From assembly GCA_965198005.1 (NCBI GenBank), contig CBDAOI010000003.1, positions 992,001 through 1,056,000 of the forward strand: a stretch of 64,000 nucleotides of DNA, in the 5' to 3' direction. This stretch comes from Spirochaetia bacterium (lineage in GTDB: Bacteria; Spirochaetota; Spirochaetia; SZUA-6; Bin103). The notes below the pieces were generated by a model, which did no database searches, was not told where the DNA came from, and was given only the letters and a program-made list of their open reading frames with translations. Shown here in pieces: positions 1 through 36,183 of the stretch. A program made the position numbers and the translations under genes. Every line of letters starts with the position of its first letter. Within the stretch, counting starts at the first letter, position 1.

Positions 1-85
1 CGCGCTCCATGGCCGTTTCGATTTCATGGCCGAAGAGCTGGCGGCGCAACTGCCTGGGCGTCCCGTTATCGAACAGGATGCGCAT
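1..85 (-). CDS. DUF5615-family PIN-like toxin (VapC45-like), 5' part; runs off the window edge
   Basis: Manual translation from ATG at 85: MRILFDNGTPRQLRRQLFGHEIETAMER, a typical DUF5615 N-terminus; overlaps the end of the DUF433 gene. Not in the ORF track. Confidence 0.8.
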   Translation of the reverse strand, partial: MRILFDNGTPRQLRRQLFGHEIETAMER

Positions 86-308
86 GGGTGACCTTGGCCC
101 GGAGGTCCTGCGCTACGTGCTCCAGCACCGCCTTCACCTCCGATTCCTCCACGCCCTCGAACCAGTCGATGAAGTCGTATATCGTAGCCCCCTCCGCAAG
201 ATTCTCGAAGAGGGCGTACACCGGCAAACGAGTGCCCGTGAACACCCAGTTGCCGCTCACCTTGCCGGGCACGCTCTCGACTGCCGGGCACTTCTCCCAG
301 TCCGTCAT
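66..308 (-). CDS. DUF433 domain antitoxin (VapB45-like)
   Basis: 80 aa with VESVPGKVSGNWVFTGTRLPV...LAEGATI motif typical of DUF433; ATG overlaps the hsdS stop (ATGA 305-308). Confidence 0.85.
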   Translation of the reverse strand: MTDWEKCPAVESVPGKVSGNWVFTGTRLPVYALFENLAEGATIYDFIDWFEGVEESEVKAVLEHVAQDLRAKVTHAHPVR

Positions 309-1790
309 ACGGTCACCTCACTTTCGATTGCCAACTGTTCTACCGTCTCATCCGGCTCGTAGAGGCCCTCAGCAATGCCGTCTGTCAGCGGGCCGCTCTC
401 GTCTATCTGGTCCTGGTCGTCGGCCTCGTCGGGCAGCTGAGCCGCCGCCTCGCGCACGTCCAGCTTGCCGGTCACCACGTCGGCGATGAGCCGCGTGCGG
501 TACTCCTGCACCAGTTCGATCTGACGGCGGGCGCGTGCGATGGCGGCTTCGATGTCCCAAGTGGCCTTGTCGAGGTATTCCGCGATGGCGGATTGTTCGG
601 CAACGGGCGGCAGCACCAGGCGCATGTATTTGAGTTGAGATCTGTAGATATGCATTATGGTTATCCCACGCCCCATGCACGATTTTTGATACGCGCTCTG
701 GACGCAATCGGTCGCATAGCCCGTGAAGCGTGGGTTCACGTCGATTCCTGGACGGAACAAAATCACGTCACCAGCCACAGTAGGATTCTTCATCGAGAAG
801 GTTGACTGCCGACTTACCAATTTCATCAATGGTCTCACCAGATCCGGCAAAGAGGATGTCACCATACTGCATAGGCGTGTAGTTTGAAGACCGTTCTAGG
901 CTAATGTAGGAACGGCTGCGCTCTATGTGATACTTGTGGTTCATGTAGATGTCCCCATATCGAATGCACGGAAGCCCTACATCCACTTCGTCTTCCTTTG
1001 TGCCTCCGCCACCCTTGGAGAACTTTCCTATTCGACCCAGTTGCAACACCTCCCAATGCTCCGGCACGTCGCCGAGCCACTCGACGCCGACGGGCTTGAG
1101 GGGGACGTTGGCGTCGAGGCCGCGGGTGACGGCCCGGTTGACGACAGCCTGCTTCTCCTCCTCCAGCAGCGCGATGAGCTTCCGCTTGGCGCTGACGTAG
1201 CGGCGGATGCGCCGGTCCACGTAGTCCAGGTAGCGCACGATGGCGGCCTGCTCGGCGAGGGGTGGGACCGGAAGCTGAACGGATTGTATGCCCGTGTGAG
1301 TAAGGCCGTACCTCGTCACACCATTCGCCGTCACGTGAAACTGATAGGCAACCCCGTCGGTTTGCAAAGCTCGTGCGAGATAAGCGCCCAGTATCTCTTT
1401 GGACGGCCGCAGCAAGGCCAGATGGTAGCCACAGATAAGGTCGTCGGCTGAATCCGTAACCAGGGCCGGAACCCCAATGTCGTCCCAAGCCTCGGAGTCC
1501 TTGGTGATGAGAACGTCACCTCGCTGTAGGCGGAACTTTTCGATTTCGTCCATCGACGCCGTAGCGCCCATGAAGGCCATACCCTGCTCGATATGGTCAT
1601 TTTTATACACATTGACATAGTTGCAGAGACGGACAGCGGATTCATCCTCCTTGAGGTGCTTATCTACGTTGCTGACACGCATATCGGCAACCGTCCGAAG
1701 CCGCCGCATCTCCCAATGCGCCGGCATGTCGCCGAGCCACTGTACGCCAGATGCCTTACAGGTGGGGTAGGAGCCCAATCCATTTATCAC
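305..1790 (-). CDS. hsdS: Type I restriction-modification specificity subunit HsdS, split by a +1 frameshift near 773
   Basis: ORFs 768..1790 and 305..865 give two TRD-conserved-region units (SGVQWLGDMPAHW, PPLAEQAAIVRYLD, GVEWLGDVPEHW, PPVAEQSAIAEYLD, RLIADVVTGKLDVR). Removing one base restores EESYCGGDVILFRP. Confidence 0.9.
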
Positions 1791-3391
1791 GAGAACAGAT
1801 CCCTCTCTAATTCCTGCAAGACCCCAGGCGTTTGTCTAAGTGCAGGAACCAAATGCTGCTGTGCAAACTCGATGCGACTATTGCCGAGATTGGCGATTTT
1901 GGTTAACTGCCTTATGGTTGCGAGCAATTTCTGCGAGACCTTCTTCATGTCGGCAGTAGCTACAGGGATTCCCTCAAGGAGCTGCGTTTGTTTGGCCAAG
2001 ACACTATTGACGGCCGTTACTCTTCCATTATTTGACAGAAAGGTCTTCAAAACATCAGGATCGTAGAGATAATTCTCCAATTCTCTCCTCCGAAGCACTC
2101 GTAGCCCGGTTGCAATTTTCTGCTGGCGAGCATTATCTGTCATCTCGTCACGGTCTATGACCCGCGAAATGGTTGCGCCCTTTGATACGGCCTGCAAGAC
2201 AGCGATCAAGGGTCCGCTTCTTACCACTTCAGCGGTCCCTCCATGCGACACGAAGAGCGTGTCTGGGCGGGCTTCAGCAAACAGGTCGTTGTAACACGCG
2301 GCATCAAAGCCTTTGTCAGCCTTGGAGTGGGCGCCCTCACAGACTACGATGTATTCTGGAGTTATCAGGTCAGCCAAGTCGTCCAAGGCAACTTCGTAAG
2401 CCCTGTGCCAGAAAGCTCTGCTTGGCACGCTGGGGCGGATTTTCACGTCCTGGTCTAGGTCATGTTCTGAGAAGTCAATGAAAGCCACATCGTCCTGTTG
2501 TCGCATCAGTTCATATGCCTTTCGCACGAACCCGATGGAATGAGTGGCGATCCACAATTGCGATTCTGGGGGCGTCATGTCCAGCATGACTTCCAATAGC
2601 CTGCCATGAAGGGCTGTGGCGGTGTGGGCCTCTGGTTCATCAATGCAGTAAATGGCATCTCGGTACTCAGAACGTTTGACAAACATATCCAACAACAAGT
2701 CGAATGCCGCCTTTTCTCCAGCAGACAAGTTCTTGTAATGAAAGTCGGAGGCCGTTCCTTTGGAGAATCGAAATACGCCCGTCGTCTGTATACCTCCAAA
2801 ATCCTGTAGGGCGAGAGGTGGATCTGCAAACAGTTTCGCCATGGAGTCTTGAAGCTCTCGTAAACACTCTTTTCGGTATTGTTCAAACGTAGTTGTACCG
2901 GGCTCATCTCCATCAAGGTCTGCCATGCGCCTCCAACTCAGACGGCTATAGTTCTCGGAAACTGCTCGATCTGGGTCGATGATGCGCGCGAAACGGGGCT
3001 TTTCTACGGAAGGTGCCACGCGCCCCAGCGTCTCCAACTGGAAATCCGCTTCATTCCTATAGGCGGTTCTTATGCAGAATACGCTAGACCACTGATCAGG
3101 CGCTGGCTTCTTGCCGTAAAAGGCAATATCGATTTTGCTAGCCACTTCACTAATGGACCTCAGTGCGGCTTCGGAGGATGAATCCTTCTGGTAGTAGTCG
3201 GCGAATTGGCCTTCAAGTCGATAGTTGTGCCGTTCCGCCTGCGACTTAGCCAAGAACGCATCGAACACAGATGATTTGCCACAGCCGTTTGGGCCAAGCA
3301 AGACCACTAGGCGCGTGGACTCAGGGATGTTTGTCAGGGTCAAGCTGGCAAATCTCTTGTAGTTGTTCAGCCGAACACGGTGGATTCTCAT
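1787..3391 (-). CDS. ABC-type (AAA_15/AAA_21-like) ATPase fused to a C-terminal TOPRIM-like domain (OLD/PARIS-like architecture)
   Basis: Walker A GPNGCGKS, signature LSAGEK, Walker B CIDEPEAH, H-loop IATHS; C-terminal VVCEG...D, VIDRD (DxD) and RRELENYL. Visibly more A/T-rich than hsdM; overlaps both neighbours. Confidence 0.8.
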   Translation of the reverse strand: MRIHRVRLNNYKRFASLTLTNIPESTRLVVLLGPNGCGKSSVFDAFLAKSQAERHNYRLEGQFADYYQKDSSSEAALRSISEVASKIDIAFYGKKPAPDQWSSVFCIRTAYRNEADFQLETLGRVAPSVEKPRFARIIDPDRAVSENYSRLSWRRMADLDGDEPGTTTFEQYRKECLRELQDSMAKLFADPPLALQDFGGIQTTGVFRFSKGTASDFHYKNLSAGEKAAFDLLLDMFVKRSEYRDAIYCIDEPEAHTATALHGRLLEVMLDMTPPESQLWIATHSIGFVRKAYELMRQQDDVAFIDFSEHDLDQDVKIRPSVPSRAFWHRAYEVALDDLADLITPEYIVVCEGAHSKADKGFDAACYNDLFAEARPDTLFVSHGGTAEVVRSGPLIAVLQAVSKGATISRVIDRDEMTDNARQQKIATGLRVLRRRELENYLYDPDVLKTFLSNNGRVTAVNSVLAKQTQLLEGIPVATADMKKVSQKLLATIRQLTKIANLGNSRIEFAQQHLVPALRQTPGVLQELERDLFS

Positions 3392-5523
3392 AAAGGTACT
3401 CCGCTGCCGGTTAGGCTCACTATCTCCGCCAACAGCCCCTCCGTCTCCCGCTCCAGCGTCAGTATGTCAGCCCGTATATCCTCCAGGGGGCGTAGGGGCT
3501 GAGGCTTGTAGAAGTGGCGGGTGAAGCTGATCTCGTAGCCAACCTTCACGCTGTCCGTCACGTGCCAGGCGTCTGGGGCGTAGGGCAGAACCTCGCGGCG
3601 CAGGAATGCTTCGATGCCGCCTTCCTCCATCAGAGGCACCTGCTCCGTGTCGCGCAGGTCGGTATCCGGCTCGTACTCGACGACGGCCGGCTTGCCGTCG
3701 ATGGTGGCGGCGAACAGGCCCTGCAATGGGTTGGGTTCCGTACCGGACTTGTGGGTCTTCTTGATGACGGGTTCGGCTGCCTCGTCCCGCACAGCAAATG
3801 ACGTCTGAAGGAGCTTGTTTCGCTTGGCTGTCAACTTGACGTGATGCTCGGAAATGTCTGTCTCTACGGCAGCCATGAAGCGATTGAAGTCGAGGTGATT
3901 CCCAGCGCCTGATGCGTCTGCCATCCGGTCGACGACGTTTGCAATCGGTTCTTCTTGGACTTCCTGGCATGCGGCCCGGAACCGGGCGCGTTGTTCCGGC
4001 GACAGATCGACGGCGAGGCGCAACGGACGCTCCACGGTGACCTTGCAGTAGCCGAAGGCCTCGTTGGGGAATATCTTCGACTGCTCCGTCTCCTCGAAGG
4101 CCAGGAAGGCGTCGCAGATGCGACGGATGTCCTCGTCGGACAGTTCGCAGTTCTTGCTGCCCAGGTTCTTGCGCAGCGGCCGGGACCACTGCGTGGCGTC
4201 GATGAGCTGAATCCGGCCCCGGCGGTGCGCCGGCTTGCGGTTGCTGAGTACCCAGATGTAGGTGGCGATGCCGGTGTTGTAGAACATGTTGAGCGGCAGC
4301 GCGACGATGGCTTCCAGCCAGTCGTTCTCGATGATCCAGCGGCGTATGTTGCTCTCGCCCTGCCCGGCGTCGCCAGTGAAGAGGGAGCTGCCGTTGTGGA
4401 CCTCGGCGATGCGGCTGCCCATCGGCGTGTCCCGCTTCATCTTGCTCAGCATGTTGGCAAGGAACATCATCTGGCCGTCGCTGGAGCGGGTGATGAGGGA
4501 GTAGTCCGAGTTGCCGCCGTGTTCCACGACGAAGCGCGGGTCCGTGATGTCGGACTTGCCGCCCATCCGCTCCAGGTCGGTCTTCCAGCTCTTGCCGTAG
4601 GGCGGATTGGAGAGCATGAAGTCGAACTCGCGGGCTGCGAAGGCGTCGGCGGAGAGGGTGGAGCCGAACTGCATGTTGTCGGCCTCGACGCCCTCGCCCT
4701 TCAGGATGAGGTCGGCCTTGCTGATGGCGTAGGTCTCGGCGTTGACTTCCTGGCCGTACAGGTGAACAGATACCTCTTTGCCACGCTCGGCGGCCAGCTG
4801 CGCCAGCGTCTCTTCCGCGACCGTCAGCATCCCGCCCGTGCCGCAGGCGCCGTCGTAGACCAGGTAGGTGCCGGACCTGACCTCGTTGGCCACGGGCAGG
4901 AAGACGAGGCGGGCCATGAGCTGCACCACATCACGCGGGGTGAAGTGCTCCCCGGCCTCCTCGTTGTTCTCCTCGTTGAAGCGGCGTATGAGCTCTTCGA
5001 AGACCGTGCCCATGCCGTGGTTGTCCAGGCCGTCGAGACGCACGGAGCCGTCTCCGTTAAGGATGGGCTTGGGGCTGAGGTTGATCGAGCTGTCCAGGAA
5101 CTTCTCCAGCAGGAAGCCGAGCACGTCCGCATCCACCAGCGTGGGAATCTGGTTGCGGAACTTGAACTTCGCCAGGACCTCTTCGACGTTGGGAGAGAAG
5201 CCGTCGAGGTATGCCTCGAAGTCTGCTCGCAACTGCTGTTGCCGCCCGCGGGATGTAAGGTCGCGGAGCCGGAAGGGGGAGGTGTTGTAGAAGGCCTCAC
5301 CGGAGGCTTGGCGCAGTGCCCGGTCCTGGTTCGTTATGCCGGCGTCGTCCAACTGGACCTTCATGCGGAGAACCGCGTCCTTGGTCGGTTCCAGAACTGC
5401 GTCGAGGCGGCGAATGACCGTCATGGGCAGGATGACGTCGCGGTACTTGCCGCGGACGTAGACATCGCGCAGAACGTCGTCCGCGATGCCCCAGATGAAG
5501 CTGCTGATGTTCAGAGCGCTCAC
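3388..5523 (-). CDS. hsdM: Type I restriction-modification N6-adenine methyltransferase HsdM
   Basis: 711 aa; FIWGIADDVLRD N-terminus, EAGEHFTPRDVV, motif I YDGACGTGGML, motif IV SNPPY, FYNTGIATYIW. Confidence 0.95.
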   Translation of the reverse strand: MSALNISSFIWGIADDVLRDVYVRGKYRDVILPMTVIRRLDAVLEPTKDAVLRMKVQLDDAGITNQDRALRQASGEAFYNTSPFRLRDLTSRGRQQQLRADFEAYLDGFSPNVEEVLAKFKFRNQIPTLVDADVLGFLLEKFLDSSINLSPKPILNGDGSVRLDGLDNHGMGTVFEELIRRFNEENNEEAGEHFTPRDVVQLMARLVFLPVANEVRSGTYLVYDGACGTGGMLTVAEETLAQLAAERGKEVSVHLYGQEVNAETYAISKADLILKGEGVEADNMQFGSTLSADAFAAREFDFMLSNPPYGKSWKTDLERMGGKSDITDPRFVVEHGGNSDYSLITRSSDGQMMFLANMLSKMKRDTPMGSRIAEVHNGSSLFTGDAGQGESNIRRWIIENDWLEAIVALPLNMFYNTGIATYIWVLSNRKPAHRRGRIQLIDATQWSRPLRKNLGSKNCELSDEDIRRICDAFLAFEETEQSKIFPNEAFGYCKVTVERPLRLAVDLSPEQRARFRAACQEVQEEPIANVVDRMADASGAGNHLDFNRFMAAVETDISEHHVKLTAKRNKLLQTSFAVRDEAAEPVIKKTHKSGTEPNPLQGLFAATIDGKPAVVEYEPDTDLRDTEQVPLMEEGGIEAFLRREVLPYAPDAWHVTDSVKVGYEISFTRHFYKPQPLRPLEDIRADILTLERETEGLLAEIVSLTGSGVPL

Positions 5524-6338: not shown

Positions 6339-7046
6339 CAACAGATTCGAGCGTTGTCATCAGTGTCCGGATAGCGGACCCTGGGGTCCAGGACCGCGTA
6401 GACCAGGTCGATGAGCAGATTGATCCCCACCACGCCCGTGGCGAAGAACAGGTTGATACCGGAGACCATCGGGTAGTCTCTGTTGTTGAGGGCATTCAGC
6501 AGGAGACGCCCGAGCCCCGGCAGGTTGAAGATGTTCTCCATGATGACGGCGCCCCCGACCAGGATCGGCAACTGCAGGCCGATCAGGGACACCACCGGGA
6601 TGAGGGCATTCTTGACGGCGTGTCGGACTCACCACGGCCCGTCCGTCCCTGAGGCCCGATTTCGACCAGGCGGTCCTCGATATAGTCTCGCTATGCCGGA
6701 GCACCTCCAGCATCATGGTGCGGGTCATCCGCATGGTGGCGGCCGCCGCGGCCGTTCCCAGAATCAGGCTGGGGATCAGGAACCCCCAGAGATTCCCGAG
6801 CGGATCCTCGGTGAAAGGAACCAATTCCAGCGGGGGCGTCCAGCCCCACCAGATGGCCGGGTAGATCATCACCATGATGCCGAGCCAGAAGTTGGGCGTG
6901 GCCAGGCCGATGACGGCGACCGAGCGCCCCAGGTAGTCGGCGGCGCTATCCTGGCGAATCGCCGAGTAGACGCCGACCGGCAGCGCGATCACCAGCCCGA
7001 TGACGATTGCCATGACGCCGAGCTGGATGGTTACCGGCAGTCCCAC
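6320..7046 (-). pseudogene. Dpp/Opp ABC permease (DppB-like), 5'-truncated and frameshifted
   Basis: LPVTIQLG...GLATPNFWLG...MRMTRTMMLEVLR, then frameshifted ENIFNLPGLGRLL...DPRVRY; close paralog of 38110..39078. Confidence 0.85.
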
Positions 7047-7273
7047 CTACCTGAGGGATGGCTTAGGCTGCCTCTCCCTTCCGCGTCCATACGCACCGCC
7101 CAGCAGGGAGCCGGCCAAGGCTGCCGTAGCGGCAGGATGCGGCCCAATATCGACATCGCCGGGGATGTGCTGCCTCTCAGCCCTCCTGAGAGAGGAGCTG
7201 GGAAACCCGCTCGGAAGCGGCTCCCGGCTCCTGAGCGTTATCAGACCACGCCTCTCAGCCGGGGCGAAAGCCC

Positions 7274-8735
7274 CTAGAATCCCATCGACTACTTCAGCTC
7301 CTGATCAATCCAGAGGCGGGCGAACACCCAATTCTTGAGAGCGAAACCCAACCGGAATTCACCGTTGTAACCTTTGAGCCACGGCTGGGTCGCTTCAAAC
7401 CTCGGACCTATGGGCCCCCATACGGTCCAGTGCTTCTCTATCGCGTACATATCCATCGCTATAACCAGCCTCTGCTGCTCCTCTGTGGTCGCAGCCGCGG
7501 CGTTTCAAACGGCTTCATAATCGGGTCGCACTGCGGCGTTGATCAGTGTGGGACCCGCAACGAGAGCATCACGACCCCCATAGCGTTCGGTCATCGATGC
7601 TCGTTTCGAATTCGTAGGAGTGCTTGCCCTCGTCGTTGTCGATATGAGCGTGCCCGAGTTCTGGCCAGCTCACCGGTGCCGGAGTCTGGAACGATCGTCG
7701 GAACCGTCAACGCGGCCTCTGCCCCTCTCCATCGAACCGTGAGCTGCTGAAGGACGAACGAGCCCCGTATGCCACCGATCCCCTATCAGCCCGTGGGGTG
7801 TTCGTATCTGCATAACCCTTAAAGTACGCTTGGTTAATCTCTTCGAGATTTATGGCCATCTGCATGGCTTGGCGTACCCTGATGTCATCGAAGGGCGGGT
7901 TATTCACGTTAAGACCACTAGCGGCGAGGGTCACAGTGTAAACGGGCCGCAACTCGATTTCGGGGTTGGTCCGCTCGAGGCTCTCTGCCTGGTCGATAGA
8001 CCCTATGTTGCCGAGGCCCAACCCGACGTAATCAAGCTTACCCGAGCGCAGTGCCGCCAGATAGGTTGCCGCTTCATGGCATGAGCAGGCCCCTTATCTC
8101 GTCAACATAGGGCAAGCGGTTCTCCGGGTATTTTTCGTCGGTGCCCCAGTAGTCGGGATTCTTGATAAAGGTTTTGGAGCTGCCCTCGACCACGTGCGCG
8201 TCAGCATAAAGGGTCCGGTGCCGACCAGGTTCTTCCAATCCGTCGCGTCGCCGTATTGCTTGATGACCTCGGGGGGGTAGATGAAAGCAATCCAGTCGTC
8301 GATGATAGCCGCCAGCCCATTGAGGTGTGGCTGCTTCAGTTTGAAAACCACTGTCGATTCGTCGGTGGCCGTTATCGATTCGAATGACAACGATTTGAGA
8401 GCTTGGGTAAATTGGGTAGGCTCGGTGAAGCCGCTGCCCAGACCCATCAGGCGGTGATAGTTGTACTCGATATCTTGGGCAGTCAGCTCCCGACCGTTCA
8501 TCGGCGGCTTATCATGCCAGTGAACGCCCTGGCGGACGTTGACGATAATAGTGAGTGGGTCCGGCTGCGACCAGCTTTCCGCCAGCTGCCCTGTCATGAC
8601 AAACAAAGGCGCGGAGAGACCTGCGAAGTCATATTCGGCCCTATCTATTCCCCAGTCGACCGTGCCTAGCTTCTCTAAAACACCATTGAAGAATTGATTC
8701 CCCCAGACACCAGAGAGCGTGACGTCAGGGGTCAT
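7274..8735 (-). pseudogene. Family-5 ABC solute-binding protein, fragmented
   Basis: Pieces in different frames: GQLAESWSQPD...VRQGVHWHDKPPMNGRELTA, PFDDIRVRQAMQMAIN, and C-terminal FARLWIDQELK*SMGF*; unrelated sequence interleaved at about 7550-7770. Confidence 0.85.
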
Positions 8736-9020
8736 CCGTTAGCGTAACGAACAGGTGCTCGCATTGTCAAAGGTGGCGGAAGCGAAACCAATAATCAACG
8801 GCTCTGTCGTGTAATCATCAAGAATATTGGAAGACCGAGACGTCCGAGTCATGCAACGGCCAGAGGAAGCAGGGAGTAGTGCTTTGAAACCGGCGTTATG
8901 CCGCGACCTGAACGCCGGAACAGCGCGCGGTAACGCGAACCCAAGATGCCTACACCGTGCAATGTACCGGAAGCCGGAGCGAGAAGTAAATAAGGAACCG
9001 GATTTGGACTTAGGCCGGAC

Positions 9021-10493: not shown

Positions 10494-11549
10494 TCAGTTG
10501 TATTCGGTGCCGCCGCGGCGGGTCAGGTACTTGCCGGACACGCTCTTCAGTATCACCCTGCCGAATTGGGGCGAGACCCGTTCCGTGGCCGGCTTCACCA
10601 CCGCGCCCTCGCGCACGTGGCTGCCGCCGAGCGCCGTAACCCCATCGGTCAGCTCCTGCAGCTTGGCCAGGCTGAACGGGCCCTCGTACAGCCGGGGAAC
10701 GATCGGGAACAGATCGCCCAGCGACTCCGTGAGCTCGGCCGGACCCAGGTAGCGCCCGCTTCCCGGATCGCCGACGTAGGCATCGAACACGGCGAACGCC
10801 GGATTGGGCTTGCCGTAGTGCAGATCCTGCACCCCGCGCCCGTACACCTCGCCCAGAACGTAGAGCGGCTGATCGCCGGCGGCAAGGCGGGTGCGGGCCG
10901 CCCCGAACGCCTCGGCATGGGCGTGCCAGGTACGCACGTACAGGTTGTTGCGGTTCACTTCGTCGTCGAGGATCAGCGCCAACCCTTTGTCCGACATCCC
11001 CTTGGAAGTGACGATCGGGCCGTGGTCCGGGTGCCATCCCAGGCAGCACCAGGTGCCGTGCAGCTTCTCCGTGATCGCCACCGGTTCTCCGGGGCGCAAC
11101 TCGTCCGGGTACTTCTTGAAGTCCTCGATGTCGTAATGCAGGGTGGCGCCGTGCACCGCCCGCACCTCGCCCTGCATCGACACGGGGATCGGCGGCTCGT
11201 ACTTGACCAGCTCCAGCAGGTCGGTGACGTCGTCGCCCGCGCGCACCTCTTGCCCGCGAATCTTGCCGTCGCGCACGGGGTACACCAACCCCTGCGAGAG
11301 GGCGCCGCGGAGCTGTACCGCCTTGACGCGGTTGTGCTTGCTGCCGGCCAGCTTGCCCTCGAGCCCGAGCTCCGCGATCAGCCAGTCGGGACAGATCGCC
11401 GCCTCGGGGACGTACGCGGCGAGGTCGCCGTTCACGAAGGAGTCCTTGCCGACGACGCAACGGAAACCGCCGATCGCCGCCAACTCAAGGCGGTCGGCGT
11501 TGGGGTGCGGCTCGATGAGCAGCGCATGTACGCGTGATTCAAACGCCAT
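10494..11549 (-). CDS. ATP-dependent RNA ligase, DRB0094 family (Rnl5-like)
   Basis: N-terminal IEPHPNADRLELA OB-like module; nucleotidyltransferase motifs I TEKLHGT, III GEVYG, IIIa FAVFD, IV REGAVVK, V LKSVS. Start taken at MAFESRV (11549). Confidence 0.9.
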   Translation of the reverse strand: MAFESRVHALLIEPHPNADRLELAAIGGFRCVVGKDSFVNGDLAAYVPEAAICPDWLIAELGLEGKLAGSKHNRVKAVQLRGALSQGLVYPVRDGKIRGQEVRAGDDVTDLLELVKYEPPIPVSMQGEVRAVHGATLHYDIEDFKKYPDELRPGEPVAITEKLHGTWCCLGWHPDHGPIVTSKGMSDKGLALILDDEVNRNNLYVRTWHAHAEAFGAARTRLAAGDQPLYVLGEVYGRGVQDLHYGKPNPAFAVFDAYVGDPGSGRYLGPAELTESLGDLFPIVPRLYEGPFSLAKLQELTDGVTALGGSHVREGAVVKPATERVSPQFGRVILKSVSGKYLTRRGGTEYN

Positions 11550-11779
11550 GGTTCCGGAGCAGGGAAGATAGTCACTCGCCCGCTGCGCGGTCAAATCAAA
11601 TGCCTTGCGGCCCTTGCGGCCTTGCACGTGGCCGCCGCGCGGCCGCCGCGCGCGCCCCGAGCGCGTTGACTGGTTGGCGGAAGTATGAGATAAGGAAGGC
11701 CGGCTTCGGGAGCAGATTGAATGGACCTCGACCCACGGTCCGGCACTGTCGGCACAATCAGATTCCGAGAGGAGTCACT

Positions 11780-13056: not shown

Positions 13057-13792
13057 ATGGTGGCGCCCTTCCAGCGGTTCCCAGATAACGCCACGGCCGA
13101 ACAGTGGTTCGTTGAAACCCGCTGGCCGTCTGGTGTTCAGTGCCCCGCCTGCGCCTCGGACAACGTGCAGGCGCGACCGACGCGCAAGCCCCAGCCCTAC
13201 CGGTGCCGCTCCTGCCGCACCGACTTCTCCGCCAAGACCGGCACCCTGATGCAGGGTTCCAACCTCGGTTTCCAGACCTGGGTAATCGCGCTCTACCTGC
13301 TGACCACGGGGTTGAAGGGAACCTCCAGCATGAAGCTCCATCGAGACCTGGGCGTCACGCAGAAAACCGCGTGGCACTTGGCGCATCGCATCCGCGAGAC
13401 CTGGGCCGCGCACGCTGCCGCGTTCGACGGGCCGGTGGAACTGGACGAGGCCTACCTCGGGGGCAAGGAGGACCACGAAGCGCGAGCGGGGCCGTCCGCG
13501 CAAACAGCAATCAGGGGCCAGCGGGTCAAAGCGGGGACCCGGGCGACCGCCCAAGATCATGCCCACACCGATTCCGGCGACGCTGGATGAGTTGGCCCGC
13601 GCGATCATGCAGGGGCCACCCAAAAAGGAATGGGACTACCTCAAAGCCAAGAAGTAGCCGCGTGAATCGTCTGAACCTCTGGCGATTGGCGTCAGGTGGG
13701 TCGCGTTCGAGGATGCCTGGCAGTGGGCAGTGGTACGAAATGGCGTAATCTGCCCGTTACCCAGCTATGGGTAAGATTATATATAATCCCCC
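13057..13792 (+). mobile_element. IS1595-family element remnant: truncated transposase, small passenger ORF remnant and one terminal inverted repeat
   Basis: Zn-ribbon CPAC...YRCRSCRTDFSAKTGT, SSMKLHRDLGVTQKTAW, VELDEAYLGG, then truncated; short ...IPATLDELARAIMQGPPKKEWDYLK* (to 13657); end read on minus strand GGGGGATTATATATAATC (13792-13775). Confidence 0.85.
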
Positions 13793-16357: not shown

Positions 16358-16765
16358 TCATGCGGATTGGATCAGCTTGAGGTTGGAGATATCGGCGAAG
16401 TCGCCGTCGTGCGAGGCCAGTGGACACTTCAACAGGATAGCGGTCGCGGCAATCCATGCATCTGCGGCTTTCAGTTCCCGTCCAACGGACCTTCGCTCGG
16501 TACGCAGGTGCGCGGAGATGTGGATCAGTTCTTGAGTTACCCACACGACATCATACTGATTGAGATGTGCGGCAAGATCCGTCTTGCGTCTTTGGCCCCA
16601 GTTATCCTTGTACGCGCCGAACCATAGCTCCTCCAGCGTTTGAAACGATATGAAACTTCGACGGCCGGCGAGTCGCTTCTCGTAGTACGGTGCCCGGCTA
16701 TCCTGATTGTGGATGATCGAGACAACGCTGGTGTCCACGACTACGGGCGGTTCAGGAACCATCAA
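16358..16765 (-). CDS. PIN-domain (VapC-like) ribonuclease
   Basis: VVVDTSVVS, TLEEL, ADAWIAATA, LASHDGDF; start overlaps the upstream gene stop (ATGA). Confidence 0.9.
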   Translation of the reverse strand: MMVPEPPVVVDTSVVSIIHNQDSRAPYYEKRLAGRRSFISFQTLEELWFGAYKDNWGQRRKTDLAAHLNQYDVVWVTQELIHISAHLRTERRSVGRELKAADAWIAATAILLKCPLASHDGDFADISNLKLIQSA

Positions 16766-23233: not shown

Positions 23234-23861
23234 ATGATAGAAGATACGTCGGACGAGTATATTGAAGATCCACTGAACGGTGATGACGAGATTGCCGGCA
23301 CGATACGCTACGCTATCTCGAGTTACGGAGCTGATATGCCTGTTGATGGAGTAATCAGCAGGCTTGATCGGAATGACATTTTTATCCCGCAGTTCCAACG
23401 AAACTTCGTATGGAATCAAGCTCAGGCATCCCGGTTCATTGAGTCTTTGCTTCTAGGCCTTCCCGTGCCTGGGATATTTCTGTTCAAGGAACCCGAGACG
23501 AGGCGTCTGATGGTCATCGATGGACAACAGAGACTGCTGACGTTGAAGTCTTTTCACGACGGAATAATCCGTGATAGAGCATTTGCATTGGTCGGTGTAT
23601 CGAAGGATTTCGCGGGTAAGACATACAAGACATTGGCTGATGAAGAGCGTCGAGAACTTGATGATTCGATACTGCACGCAACAATCTTCCAGCAAGATCG
23701 TCCGAGCGATGATCGTAGTTCGATCTACTCCGTGTTTGAGCGGTTGAATACTGGAGGGACCTCTCTACAGCCTCAAGAGATTCGTTCCTGTGTGTATAGA
23801 GGAGCGTTCAACGATCTGCTGTCGGAGCTAGCTAACAATTCTCACTGGAGAAAGCTCTACT
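23234..23861 (+). pseudogene. DUF262 (GmrSD N-terminal, ParB/Srx-like) protein, truncated
   Basis: IPQFQRNFVW, FIESLLLGLPVP, VIDGQQRL, FERLNTGG; A/T-richer than flanks; ends abruptly near 23861. Confidence 0.85.
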
Positions 23862-24973
23862 TTGGCGGGGCTGTTTGCCGACGCGGGTTACCGGACCGGC
23901 TACATCGGCAAGTGGCACTCGGCAGCTCCGGCGTGGGGGCAGTGCCGGAGTCCGAGCGCTACGGTTACCGGGACTGGCTGGCGTCCAACCTGCTGGAGCT
24001 CACCTCCGACGCCTACGCCACCACGATGTACGACGAGCGCGGCGCCGCGGCCCGGTTGCCGGGCTACCGGGTCGACGCCGTTGCGGATGCGGCGATCCGT
24101 TGCCTCGACCGGCAGGCGCGGCAGCGGCAGCCGTTCTTCCTGTTCACGTCGTTCCTCGAACCGCACATGCAGAACAGCCGGGACGACTACCCGGCGCCCA
24201 CCGGTTACGAGGAGGCCTGCACCGGCGTCTGGGTACCGCCCGATCTGGCCGCCCTCGGCGGCTCGAGCCACCGGCACCTGGCCGGCTACTACGGCATGGT
24301 GAAGCGCCTCGACGAGGCGCTGGGCCGGGTGCTCGACGCGTTGCGCAGCCTCGATCTGCTGCAGTCCACCGTGGTGCTGTTCACCAGCGACCACGGTTGC
24401 CATTTCAAGACGCGCAACGACGAATACAAGCGCTCATGCCACGAGAGCTCGATCCGCCTGCCCACCGTCCTGATCGGCCCCGGGCTCGACGGCGGCGGCC
24501 GGGTGCGGCAGCTCACCAGCCTGATCGACCTGCCGCGCACGCTGCTGGACGCGGCCGGCCTCACGCCGCCGCCGGCGATGCGCGGTCGGTCGGTCCTGCC
24601 GCTGCTTACCGATCCGGCGGCGCGGAAGACCTGGCCCGACGACCTGTTCGTTCAGGTCAGCGAGAGCCAAGTGGGGCGGGCGCTGCGGACCGCTCGCTGG
24701 AAGTACGGCGTGTTCGCTCCCGGCGCGGATGGCAACACGCAACCGTCCGCCGCCAGCTACCAGGAGCAGTACCTCTATGACCTGCGCGCCGACCGCTACG
24801 AGTTGGTCAACCTCGCCGGCAGCCGCGCGCACGACAGCGTAGCGGCGCGCCTGCGGCGGCGGTTGCTCCGTCACTTGGCCGCGGTGGAGGGCAGTGAGCC
24901 GACCATCGTGCCCGCAGCCAGTCGGCACGTCCCCCTCGTCACCATCACCAACGACGAGTTGGCCGGCCTCTAA
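23862..24973 (+). pseudogene. Sulfatase, N-terminally truncated with an early frameshift
   Basis: LAGLFADAGYRTGYIGKWH (shifted frame), then PFFLFTSFLEPH, VLFTSDHG, KRSCHESSIRLP, LYDLRADRYELVNLA. Confidence 0.85.
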
Positions 24974-33855: not shown

Positions 33856-34617
33856 CTAGCCCAGCCGCTCGGCTGAGTCACGGTCGGCACGTTGGGCATA
33901 CAGCTTGCGGACGGATTCTCCTTCGAGGTTGATGCGGTGGGCGCCGTGCACGATGCGATCACAGATCGCGTCGGCGATGGTGGGCTCGCCGATTACCTCA
34001 TGCCAGGACGACACCGGCAACTGCGACACCATCAGGGTCGAGGCTCGACCGTGGCGATCTTCGAGCATCTCCAGCAGTGCCAGACGCGCCAGTCCGTCCA
34101 GCGGCTCCAGCGCGAAGTCATCGATGACCACCAATGCCTGCTTCTTGATCTTCTCCAGCTCCCGGACGTAGCTGCCGTCAGCCTTGGCCAGGCGGAGTTC
34201 TCCGAACAGCCGCGCGGCCGCGTAGTAGCCGACCCGGAAGCCGCGCAGACACGCTTGGTGGCCCAGCGCGGAGGCCAGATAGCTCTTCCCGGAACCGCAT
34301 TTGCCGGTGATGATGAGGTCCTGGTGGTGCTGCACCCAGCGGCAGTCGGCCAGCCGCAGCAGTTGGTTCTTGTCCAGGTTGCGGCTCAGCGCGAAGTCCA
34401 CCTCCTCGATGGCGGCCAGGTAGCGAAAGTGGGCCGCCTTCAGCAGCCGCTGCAGGCGCCGCGCATGTCGGTCGTCCCACTCGGCATCCACCAGGTGGGC
34501 CAGCAGCTCGTCGGCGGTCCACTGGGCTGAGCTCTCCAGGGTGGTGCGCAGCGCTCGTGCCATGCCGTGCAGGCGCATCTGGTCGAGCTTGTGCAGGGTG
34601 GCTTGGTTATTGGTCAT
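33856..34617 (-). CDS. istB: IS21-family helper ATPase IstB
   Basis: ITGKCGSGKSYLASALG, VVIDDFAL, IADAICDRIVHGAHRINLEGESVRK. Confidence 0.95.
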   Translation of the reverse strand: MTNNQATLHKLDQMRLHGMARALRTTLESSAQWTADELLAHLVDAEWDDRHARRLQRLLKAAHFRYLAAIEEVDFALSRNLDKNQLLRLADCRWVQHHQDLIITGKCGSGKSYLASALGHQACLRGFRVGYYAAARLFGELRLAKADGSYVRELEKIKKQALVVIDDFALEPLDGLARLALLEMLEDRHGRASTLMVSQLPVSSWHEVIGEPTIADAICDRIVHGAHRINLEGESVRKLYAQRADRDSAERLG

Positions 34618-34627
34618 CGTCGGTACC

Positions 34628-36183
34628 TCAGTTGTAGTAGTGGCTGCCGCGCACGTTGTCATGGCGGGGGAAGTTCAGCTGCGGTTGGTCGTGCTCCTCC
34701 TCCAGGCCCAGCTTCAGCATGTTCTGAATCCGGCGGTAGGAGCACAGCCCGTAGGAGAGCGCCCGCTGGCAGGCCCGATCGAGGCGCGGTGCGCCATAGC
34801 TCTTCTCCAGGTTCAGGATGCCCAGGCAGGCACGAACCCCTGGGGCGGGTACTTGGCGTCCTTGAGCACCTTTGCGATCACGGCCTCCACGTTGCGGCCC
34901 AGCGCCCGCCCCCAGCGCAGAAATCGTTCCGGGCTCCACTCGGCATACCACCGGTGCTGCGGCGGCATGTGGTCGGGCAGCGTGGTGTAGCCACCCGCAC
35001 GACGATCGCGCTGGTACTCGACCAAGCGCACGTTGTCGTAGTGGATCGAGACGGTGCGCTCGTCGTAGAGCAGCTTGACCTTGGTGCGCGGATCGCGGGT
35101 GCGCAGGTGCCAGGGCACGCTGTAGTAGTGCCGGTCTTCGCGCAGCTCCACGTGATAGTTGAACTGGACCGTCACTTCCCGGATCTGCTGCAGCGGGAAG
35201 TGGTGCCGAGGCAACGGCTTCAGGGTGTGCCGCTCGATCTGCTCGAACAGCTCGCGCCGTGAGTAGGGCAGGCGCTGAAAGCGGCGCGCGTTGTGCTGCT
35301 CCAGCAGCGGCCTGATCGCCGCGTTGAGTTCATCGAGGGAGTGGAAGGTGCGGTCCCGCAACGGCGCGTAGATGCGCTGATAGATCAGCCGTACGGCGTT
35401 CTCGACCAGCGCCTTGTCCCGGGCCCGCCGGACGCGGGCGGGCATGATGACTACCCCGTAGTGCTGGGCGAAGGCGTCGAACTGGGGGTTGATGCCCGGT
35501 TCGTAGGGGTCTGAGCGACTGACCGCGCTGCGCAGGTTGTCCGGGATGATCACCTCGGTGCCGCCGCCGTAGTAGTGCAGCGCCCGCTCGTTGGAGCGGG
35601 CCCAGTCCTCGCCTTGTTGCGTGGCGCTGGCCTCCACATAGGTCAGTTCGCTGGCCGCGAGGATTGCCACGAACGTTTCCACCGGCTGCCCCGCGCCGCT
35701 GTCTGGGTCCACGATGGCCAGCTTGTCGCCGGCGTAGTCGACGAACAGCTTCTCCCCGGCCTTGTGGTCGATGTGCATGCCCACCTCGGTGCCCTTGCGC
35801 CAGAGGTGGAAATGATGGCAGAACTGGCTGCTCTGGTAGCCGTCAGGGTGCGCGCGCTGGTACTCCTCCCAGAGCAACTGCAGCGTTACTCCCTTGCGCC
35901 GCAGCTCCTTGACCATCGTCGGAAACCGTTCGGCCAGTCGCTCATAGCGCGCGTTCGTCTCCGGGGCGCGCGTGCCCTCCAATACGGTCAGCAGCTTGCT
36001 GTCGGGCAGCTCCTGCGCCTGCTCCCAGCTCAGTCCGCTGCCGCGGAACCACTCCAGGTACTTCGCCACCACCGTGCGCGAGACCTTCAGCGCTCGTCCA
36101 ATCGCTCGCTCACTGAGCTCGGTGGTCACCCCGTAGCGGATGACCTCTTTGATCTTCTCCACGCGAATCCTCCTGCGTGCCAT
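34628..36183 (-). CDS. istA: IS21-family transposase IstA (1-bp frameshift near 34833)
   Basis: HKAGEKLFVDYAG, IIPDNLRSAV, PARVRRARDKALVENAV, HYYSVP; C-terminus ...HDNVRGSHYYN continues in the next frame; ATG 36183 with AGGAGG. Confidence 0.93.

Follow-up and report, generated by a model that had tools for sequence, protein, structure and literature searches.

Here, we present an analysis of an operon of a Spirochaetia bacterium in which a gene for a putative ATPase-nuclease lies between the modification and specificity genes of a type I restriction-modification (R-M) system. The operon is located at the start of a 64,000-nt stretch of DNA (contig CBDAOI010000003.1 of assembly GCA_965198005.1, positions 992,001 to 1,056,000), which we refer to as the window, and its genes are on the minus strand. 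The methyltransferase gene hsdM (3388-5523) encodes a 711-residue protein (Pfam HsdM_N, E 3.7e-22, and N6_Mtase, E 5e-54; PADLOC MTase_I, E 1.3e-253) and has 89% identity to hsdM of the related locus L002. It is followed by the gene in question, here referred to as X (1787-3391). Based on its open reading frame (ORF), Pfam, PADLOC, alignments and fold, X encodes a 534-residue single-chain protein with an ATP-binding cassette (ABC)-type ATPase and a TOPRIM domain of probable DUF4435/OLD type, and is similar to the fused form (AriAB) of the PARIS defence system. The original prediction that X is coupled on both sides by 4-nt stop/start overlaps was confirmed by reading the sequence directly. The ATG of X (3391-3389) overlaps the TGA of hsdM (3390-3388) in an ATGA (3388-3391), and the TGA of X (1789-1787) overlaps the GTG of hsdS (1790-1788) in a GTGA (1787-1790). 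This coupling recurs in relatives: L002 and L004 show, by their ORF coordinates, a 4-nt overlap of the X stop with the start of hsdS, and X and hsdS abut or overlap in L011. X is also richer in A/T than hsdM, as had been claimed, with a G+C content of 0.515 (51.5%) compared with 0.631 (63.1%) for hsdM and 0.65 for the window beyond position 9000. The "good promoter" that had been proposed to precede hsdM stood only in part. A sigma-70-like match (TTGCAA-17-TATAGT with a TG before the -10 hexamer; 5683-5655, minus strand) is present about 130 nt upstream of hsdM; however, promoter-type matches number three in 6.6 kb compared with 2.3 expected from shuffled sequence, so that the match has no statistical weight and a promoter here is plausible by its position. 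In this lineage, X has come to lie immediately behind the methyltransferase gene of an R-M operon, with which it is transcribed and probably also translated.

The first half of X is an ABC-type ATPase. Residue conservation was taken from two alignments, one of 30 homologues and one of 45 sequences with 29-65% identity to X, and the counts for single residues below refer to the 45 sequences. In the Walker A motif GPNGCGKS (residues 33-40; 3272-3295), G33, P34, G36, G38, K39 and S40 are invariant, as are L222, G225, E226 and K227 in the ABC signature LSAGEK (residues 222-227; 2711-2728). In Walker B (residues 247-252; 2636-2653), D251 does not vary and at least 90% of the sequences retain E252; the H-loop histidine H284 is invariant. 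The full ABC-ATPase motif set that had been noticed in X is thus not only present but conserved. Pfam sees only the ATPase in X, with AAA_21 (45.8 bits, cut-off 27), AAA_15 (44.7 bits, cut-off 32.1) and SMC_N matching across residues 1-300. NCBIfam gave only weak N-terminal matches far under their cut-offs, and a sequence search of the Protein Data Bank (PDB) with whole X gave P-loop matches only. The least conserved part of X is residues 48-104, in an insert of the ATPase, with a mean column identity of 0.33.

The second half of X contains a TOPRIM core (residues 346-445; 2057-2356) with E352-G353, D363, D413-x-D415 and E439. Among these residues, E352, D363 and D413 are invariant, and at least 90% of the sequences retain G353, D415 and E439; the conserved motifs of this half are C351-E352-G353, D363, D413-R-D415 and E437-x-E439-x-Y441. 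The EG and DxD residues by which a TOPRIM domain had been recognized are therefore conserved in the relatives. The core is followed by a helical region (residues 446-534; 1790-2056) with a mean column identity of 0.41 compared with 0.58-0.74 in the catalytic parts. With matches up to an E of 10 included, the Pfam family of AriB, DUF4435 (PF14491), was found in 19 of the 39 C-terminal domains scanned, the best at 8.4e-8. An AlphaFold model of whole X had a predicted local distance difference test score (pLDDT) of 83.7, and its two-domain fold matches were the retron Eco8 effector, GajA and Thermus OLD (9lpa_B, 8sm3_A, 6p74). A model of residues 319-534 had a pLDDT of 90.2 and shows a beta-alpha core of four strands, behind which helices follow. 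The seven top PDB matches of this model were five C-terminal regions of class 2 OLD proteins (including 6njw and 6nk8; E 0.004-0.009, probability 0.96-0.99) and, at ranks 6 and 7, two PARIS-complex chains about 305 residues long (8v46_D, E 0.010, probability 0.82; 8ux9_A, E 0.014, probability 0.92). The best PDB match of a sequence profile of the C-terminal domain was alpha-parvin (E 0.011), which we took as a chance match. The predicted pairing of two copies of the C-terminal domain scored 0.00 compared with a mark of 0.42 and is uninformative either way. Altogether, Pfam, PADLOC, the conserved residues and the fold matches agree on an ABC-type ATPase and a TOPRIM nuclease in a single chain, as originally predicted.

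The best PADLOC model for X was AriAB (PDLC02981; E 2.5e-29, 100.5 bits). Coverage of this model is partial, and the best stretch aligns residues 217-463 of X with profile positions 305-543 of 694. Among the PADLOC models listed for X, AriAB is the only one whose best match spans the C-lobe of the ATPase into the TOPRIM core, and it matched all 45 full-length relatives (45/45), with a best E of 1.6e-38. Other known systems were considered and rejected. The GajA models of Gabija cover only residues 1-59 of X, and the neighbours of X are hsdM and hsdS; the NCBIfam model antiphage_MADS3 scored 22.6 bits compared with a cut-off of 420 and matched only residues 3-46; and Septu/PtuA, retron effectors and class 2 OLD systems were set aside either because the matches were confined to the P-loop end or because partner genes were missing. 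The combined evidence describes X as a compact and divergent ABC-ATPase/TOPRIM protein of one chain, with fused PARIS as its nearest kin. The proposed kinship with PARIS and OLD fits the AriAB match and the fold matches to OLD and to AriB-sized chains. The fusion as such was not a new idea, AriAB having been published.

Relatives of X are abundant. A word-indexed protein search gave 3256 proteins at E up to 0.001 among 8000 candidates scored, and 113 of the best 120 listed homologues have 525-565 residues. Using the C-terminal-domain profile against 1.84 billion cluster representatives, we found 1061 matches at E up to 0.001, of which 246 were at 1e-30 or below. Among the best 150 of these, 82 proteins have at least 480 residues with the match at their C-terminal end, and 68 have 141-417 residues; these short matches (among P0125-P0273) may be fragments, stand-alone domains or a two-gene split form. 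In GTDB, with one genome per species, we scanned for two conserved peptides and obtained 70 loci, a sample biased toward proteins that keep the two scanned motifs. The relatives are distributed over at least eight phyla, and the GTDB records are mostly metagenome-assembled genomes from Dehalococcoidia, Poribacteria, Caldilineaceae, Poriferihabitaceae, Acidimicrobiales and others. Such lineages are typical of marine sponge microbiomes. A phage collection gave no match to X, and a plasmid collection gave one, on pZMOB01 of Zymomonas mobilis ATCC 10988 (L071; NC_017180.1, 13115-14713). This full-length stand-alone homologue has 38% identity to X, is annotated as "AAA family ATPase" and lies between partition and toxin-antitoxin genes; a type I hsdR is located elsewhere on the plasmid. 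The G+C content of X was below that of its flanks in 52 of 52 loci, with a mean difference of -0.092. X is a horizontally mobile, low-G+C cassette.

To describe the gene neighbourhoods, we used 53 loci (L001-L054 minus L052, a 2.3-kb fragment), while 16 distant partial matches (L055-L070) were dropped. ORFs were chosen by a codon-position G+C filter, ORF-poor loci were re-checked by tblastn, and neighbours were annotated using Pfam and tblastn with methyltransferase, Res and Hsd queries from the loci themselves. A methyltransferase gene lies directly upstream of X on the same strand in 21 of the 53 loci, and these genes belong to three classes. HsdM is directly upstream within 450 nt in five loci (L002, L004, L005, L011, L014), all of which continue with hsdS and hsdR. 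A type III-like Mod with an N6_N4_Mtase domain is directly upstream in 12 loci (L026, L027, L029, L031, L032, L034, L036, L037, L038, L039, L046, L047); a gene with a ResIII domain is clustered with it in 11 of the 12, and none was found on the short contig of L029. In four loci (L021, L025, L028, L044), the upstream gene encodes a large Eco57I-type enzyme, with TaqI_C in L021 and L028. A looser or remnant R-M link was found in six more loci, i.e., an hsd cluster in which X is not directly behind hsdM in three (L013, L049, L009), a short methyltransferase-gene remnant upstream in two (L006, L041), and an EcoRII-type endonuclease gene upstream in one (L048). The remaining 26 loci have no R-M link; in these, X lies beside genes for PIN and other toxin-antitoxin proteins, Fic, MNT-HepT, Schlafen/AlbA_2, CBASS, transposases, integrases, conjugation or housekeeping functions. 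As an internal control, 899,565 bases of flanks contained two methyltransferase-like stretches unrelated to the X operon. In 13 of the 53 loci, a long ORF lies upstream whose stop shares 4 nt with the start of X. Of these 13 ORFs, 11 are whole or partial methyltransferase genes; the gap between X and the methyltransferase gene is 12-16 nt in the other type I cases and 1 and 5 nt in two Eco57I-like cases. We conclude that the link of X to R-M loci is real and wider than hsd, extending to three classes of R-M methyltransferases.

The same R-M operons also hold cassettes for Fic, MNT-HepT, Schlafen/AlbA_2, a DUF4143 ATPase, KAP and SIR2. The gene order is hsdM-hsdS-X-Fic-DUF4143-hsdR in L049 and Fic-X-hsdS in L009. 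L013 (1870-15751) is a defence island within a type I operon: hsdM and hsdS are 10.6 kb apart and enclose genes for an AHJR-like nuclease, a KAP NTPase, X and a 1187-residue SIR2-DUF4020 protein. An MNT (Polbeta) and HepT pair lies directly after X in L026, L030, L033 and L047, and in L026 and L047 this pair is located between X and the type III res gene. Fic/DOC genes lie directly upstream of X in L008, L009 and L040, upstream of mod in L047, and downstream of X in L049. Insertions or frameshifts interrupt X in nine of the 53 loci (L008, L011, L014, L018, L030, L035, L043, L047, L050). Insertions of 1.5-2.5 kb cut X in two in L011 (8649-11709), L014 (6229-10305) and L030 (7103-10191), and the insertion in L014 contains a methyltransferase-like stretch. 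In L005, hsdM (7002-8981) has an apparent in-frame stop that gives two ORFs in the same frame, and the tblastn alignment is continuous across them.

A maximum-likelihood tree was made from the 45 intact proteins by a quick search with supports from the Shimodaira-Hasegawa-like approximate likelihood ratio test only, leaving out nine disrupted copies. A single clade of 11 (support 99) holds the type III-linked copies except L026, which lies elsewhere, and the Eco57I-linked copies form one clade of four (support 100). X of the window belongs to a clade of 23 (support 99) in which seven type I-linked and 16 unlinked copies are interleaved, and its sister (support 97) is L001, which has no R-M link. 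The context labels change 10 times on the tree compared with 22.2 times in shuffles. Because labels are shared by descent and the type III-linked clade is nearly all of one phylum, the independent captures are few. We count a small number, i.e., at least two for type III, one for the Eco57I-like enzymes and several for type I.

In the window, hsdS itself is not intact. The first three quarters of hsdS (768-1790; 340 codons, then a stop at 768-770) match Pfam Methylase_S and PADLOC Specificity_I (E 7.5e-68, profile positions 6-317 of 448), and the last quarter is in another frame (305-865; Specificity_I, E 2.6e-27, profile positions 324-443 of 448); the frame changes around 771-800. The split gene (305-1790) is either a pseudogene or the result of an assembly indel error. 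An hsdR was not found in the window by tblastn with two HsdR proteins from related loci or by Pfam on large ORFs; only 304 bases are left downstream of hsdS. In relatives that share the hsdM family, hsdR comes after hsdS with one or two small genes between them, and the distance from hsdS to hsdR is about 0.02-1.3 kb in L002, L004, L005, L011 and L014. Because the relatives keep hsdR shortly after hsdS, the hsdR of the window may lie just past position 1. For X as a substitute for HsdR, the same relatives argue against the idea, and it was rejected. The edge of the window (1-308, minus strand) holds a gene with a Pfam DUF433 match (69-308) and then the first codons of a second small gene, possibly a toxin-antitoxin pair between hsdS and the unseen hsdR. 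On the other side of the operon lie fragments of a peptide ABC transporter (6363-8735, minus strand), namely two SBP_bac_5 matches (8097-8735 and 7710-8021) and a partial permease (6363-7046); these fragments suggest local gene decay or frequent indel errors.

Farther into the window, an ORF about 5 kb from the hsd operon (10497-11627, minus strand) carries a Pfam RNA_ligase domain and a PHA02142 OB-fold domain. RNA ligases mend cleaved tRNA in the conflict between T4 and PrrC. A 579-codon ORF (23234-24970, plus strand) joins a GmrSD_N (DUF262) match to sulfatase matches and is either an odd fusion or two genes run together. The window also contains a PIN-domain gene (16361-16765, minus strand), an IS1595-type zinc-ribbon ORF (13057-13587, plus strand) and an IstB/IS21 helper gene (33859-34662, minus strand).

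The original interpretation is supported in part. The compact, methyltransferase-coupled variant is new, while its class and the guard idea are already known. In a limited literature search, which included neither supplementary tables nor the ABC-ATPase classification of Krishnan et al. 2020, we found neither a description of the compact 534-residue family nor one of the link between this family and methyltransferase genes of three classes. The clade of X and its R-M links may already be covered by the classification of Krishnan et al. The fused form AriAB has been described (Rousset et al. 2022, PMC9122126; Burman et al. 2024, PMC11464382) and makes up two of 11 PARIS clades (PMC11464382). 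In the two-gene form, a hexameric scaffold of the ABC ATPase AriA keeps monomers of AriB in an inactive state; when AriA is bound by Ocr, a DNA mimic of T7, AriB is freed, dimerises and cuts tRNA-Lys (PMC11464382, PMC10802264). The acidic residues E26, D30, D88, E90 and E122 of AriB are required (PMC11464382). We found no biochemical characterisation of a fused AriAB form in the PARIS literature consulted. A guard reading of ATPase-TOPRIM proteins in R-M or BREX loci has also been voiced before (PMC10802264, bioRxiv 2024.04.12.589231, PMC12707154). The ATPase-TOPRIM pair RloAB lies within a Campylobacter type I locus, which Deep et al. take to support a synergy of PARIS-like and R-M systems (PMC10802264), and a PARIS pair is embedded in the BREX island of Salmonella (bioRxiv 2024.04.12.589231). 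Further defence genes inside type I operons are known from TgvAB of Vibrio cholerae (PMC12409362). PrrC, an embedded ATPase-nuclease of the type Ic system EcoprrI, is interpreted as a guard set off by the inhibition of restriction (PMC12707154).

We suggest that X is a PARIS-type ATPase-nuclease that acts as a backup abortive anti-phage module and is triggered by an anti-restriction protein, and we assign this reading a probability of roughly 0.55. It starts from observed properties, i.e., the anatomy of X, its family assignment, its conserved catalytic residues and its recurrent operon coupling to methyltransferase genes. From the analogy with characterised systems, we infer a trigger, a target, an oligomeric state and an abortive outcome. 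In this model, the SMC/Rad50-like ABC ATPase would be the sensor and switch, and the DUF4435/OLD-type TOPRIM domain, which would bind metal ions, the effector nuclease. In an uninfected cell, the ATPase part would keep the nuclease part off. Upon infection, a phage DNA mimic or another anti-restriction protein directed against the methyltransferase complex would bind a variable surface of the ATPase, and an ATP-dependent rearrangement would free or pair the TOPRIM domains. The nuclease would then cut host nucleic acid, which could be tRNA as for AriB or DNA as for OLD and GajA, and growth would halt before the phage completes its cycle. Because X is placed right behind methyltransferase genes, the trigger may be an inhibitor of methyltransferase-containing complexes. 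The variability of residues 48-104 and of the C-terminal helices would be expected where a protein contacts phage proteins that keep changing. The ATPase motifs, the matching acidic residues with their spacing, and these variable surfaces lead us to favour a single-chain switch of the PARIS type.

Several observations weigh against this reading. X is about 160 residues shorter than the 694-position AriAB model and may therefore lack both the coiled-coil scaffold of PARIS and the surfaces through which AriB dimerises. The C-terminal domain of X in the window scored 12.7 bits (E 0.1) with DUF4435 compared with a cut-off of 27; its model gave no PDB fold match at E 0.001, with TM-scores of 0.32-0.45, and its sequence profile found no PARIS, OLD or GajA chain among PDB sequences. 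Because the nuclease is fused in a single chain, a release like that of AriB is not available and activation must differ; X would instead have to be activated through rearrangement or pairing within an oligomer. The genomic evidence also has a negative side. The 26 relatives without an R-M link include L001, the nearest relative of X in the window; other cassettes share these R-M operons, so that embedding alone is no proof of a functional tie; and the type III-linked clade, being nearly all of one phylum, may count as one event. In addition, the PARIS pair embedded in the Salmonella BREX island showed no activity and no response to Ocr (bioRxiv 2024.04.12.589231). Finally, because hsdS is frameshifted and hsdR was not seen, the system to be guarded may be dead in this genome.

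One alternative is that X has no functional tie to R-M, being an autonomous nuclease like OLD or Gabija that senses another cue, e.g., DNA ends, nucleotide pools or another phage protein, while R-M operons are tolerated landing sites or vehicles. About half of the relatives (26 of 53) are located elsewhere, the G+C content of X is below that of the flanks throughout (52/52), transposases often adjoin, and X is itself interrupted by insertions in L011, L014 and L030; unrelated cassettes (MNT-HepT, Fic, Schlafen/AlbA_2, DUF4143, KAP-SIR2, and TgvAB in PMC12409362) occupy the same kind of operon, and the full-length fold matches are GajA, OLD and retron Eco8 effectors. We nevertheless consider this alternative rather unlikely. 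The position of X is far from random. X follows the methyltransferase gene directly and in the same orientation, often with a 4-nt overlap, and this position recurs in three R-M classes and on several branches of the tree, compared with two unrelated methyltransferase-like stretches in about 900 kb of flanks. The comparison with Gabija itself is limited by GajA models that match residues 1-59 only and by the lack of a GajB/UvrD-type helicase gene adjoining X in the window. A further alternative, that X is no longer used in this genome and is a decaying remnant, would fit an hsdS spread over two frames, an hsdR that is possibly absent, the fragmented peptide-transporter genes nearby and the disruption of nine of 53 related copies. 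Because X is full length in the window and keeps all invariant residues, while the frameshifts may be assembly errors and hsdR may lie just outside the window edge as in L002, L004, L005, L011 and L014, we regard decay as highly improbable.

The PrrC-type logic of the original interpretation would mean that X is bound and silenced by the methyltransferase-containing complex (HsdM2S, Mod or the Eco57I-like enzyme) until a phage inhibitor disables this complex and unleashes the nuclease, in which case the sensor would read the state of the R-M enzyme and not a phage protein. X lies directly behind the methyltransferase gene and not behind the R gene in 21 of 53 loci, its start overlaps the stop of a methylase gene or gene piece in 11 loci, which would favour equimolar co-synthesis, and separate clades track separate methyltransferase classes, as expected for co-evolving partners. 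PrrC, an ATPase-nuclease held by a type Ic enzyme, is a precedent (PMC12707154). This idea is weakened by the relatives without an R-M link, which number 26 among the 53 loci and 16 of 23 in the clade of X itself, including the sister L001. A single family would also need to bind methyltransferases of three unrelated architectures; the X genes of L013 and L049 belong to the operon and yet do not adjoin the methyltransferase gene; and PARIS, the closest characterised relative, senses a phage protein directly (PMC11464382). Altogether, we find latency within the R-M enzyme unlikely. A more specific version, to which we give similarly little credence, is that separate clades of X are dedicated tripwires of HsdM, Mod or Eco57I/PglX-like enzymes, each silenced by binding its methyltransferase and freed by any phage inhibitor that captures this enzyme. 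In such an arrangement, the stop/start overlap would keep synthesis in step, X would be a general guard of the PrrC type made from PARIS parts, and the guard would need no recognition of the inhibitor itself.

If X is the guard that we favour, these loci would be minimal two-layer immune units in which restriction and a one-gene suicide switch are encoded on the same mRNA. If the R-M link were only positional, X would be an ordinary new member of the ATPase-TOPRIM defence nucleases. The three parallel versions of X (type I, type III and Eco57I-like) bear on the question of whether PARIS-type sensors sense the inhibitor or the state of the enzyme, and the family bears on how a fused form is activated whose nuclease cannot leave its ATPase. 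X is also a marker of heavy traffic of defence genes in uncultured lineages (Poribacteria, Dehalococcoidia, Caldilineaceae, Poriferihabitaceae and others), and the homologue on the Zymomonas mobilis plasmid is a cultivable handle on the family.

Compared with known systems, X shares with OLD, GajA and the retron Eco8 effector the combination of an ABC ATPase and a TOPRIM domain in a single chain, and these are its best full-length fold matches; however, the PADLOC and NCBIfam models of these proteins reach no farther than the first 43-59 residues of X, and neither a helicase gene (GajB/UvrD), as in class 2 OLD/Gabija, nor a reverse-transcriptase gene, as in retrons, adjoins X in the window. 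With PrrC, X has in common that an ATPase-nuclease gene is embedded in an hsd operon. The nuclease fold of PrrC is HEPN-like. By contrast, the effector of X is a TOPRIM domain, the ATPase clade differs, and no PrrC model is among the Pfam, PADLOC and NCBIfam matches listed for X. RloAB of Campylobacter jejuni and AbiL of Lactococcus (cited in PMC10802264) likewise combine an ABC-type ATPase with a TOPRIM/OLD-type nuclease, and RloAB is encoded within a type I R-M locus. Both consist of two genes, unlike X; PADLOC AbiLi matches only the ATPase part of X (E 6.2e-13), and Pfam RloB (PF13707) was found in one of 39 C-terminal domains (E 0.0022).

PARIS AriAB differs from X in its location in phage-satellite hotspots, while X is coupled to R-M methyltransferase genes, and in its length, with 534 residues of X against a 694-position model, a partial alignment and a DUF4435 score under the cut-off. 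The two agree in being a single chain with an N-terminal ABC ATPase of the AAA_15/AAA_21 type and a C-terminal TOPRIM domain, probably of the DUF4435 type. The acidic residues of this domain are conserved, and the proposed sensor surfaces are variable. The acidic pattern of X is also that described for AriB, with 61 residues from E352 to D413 in X and 62 from E26 to D88 in AriB. The PARIS of the Salmonella Typhimurium BREX island consists of two genes (ariA and ariB) and lies in a BREX and not in a type I operon; like X, it is a PARIS-type module in an operon with a methyltransferase. That methyltransferase, PglX, is a target of Ocr (bioRxiv 2024.04.12.589231), and its domain make-up is similar to that of the Eco57I/TaqI_C-type enzymes encoded upstream of X in L021, L025, L028 and L044.

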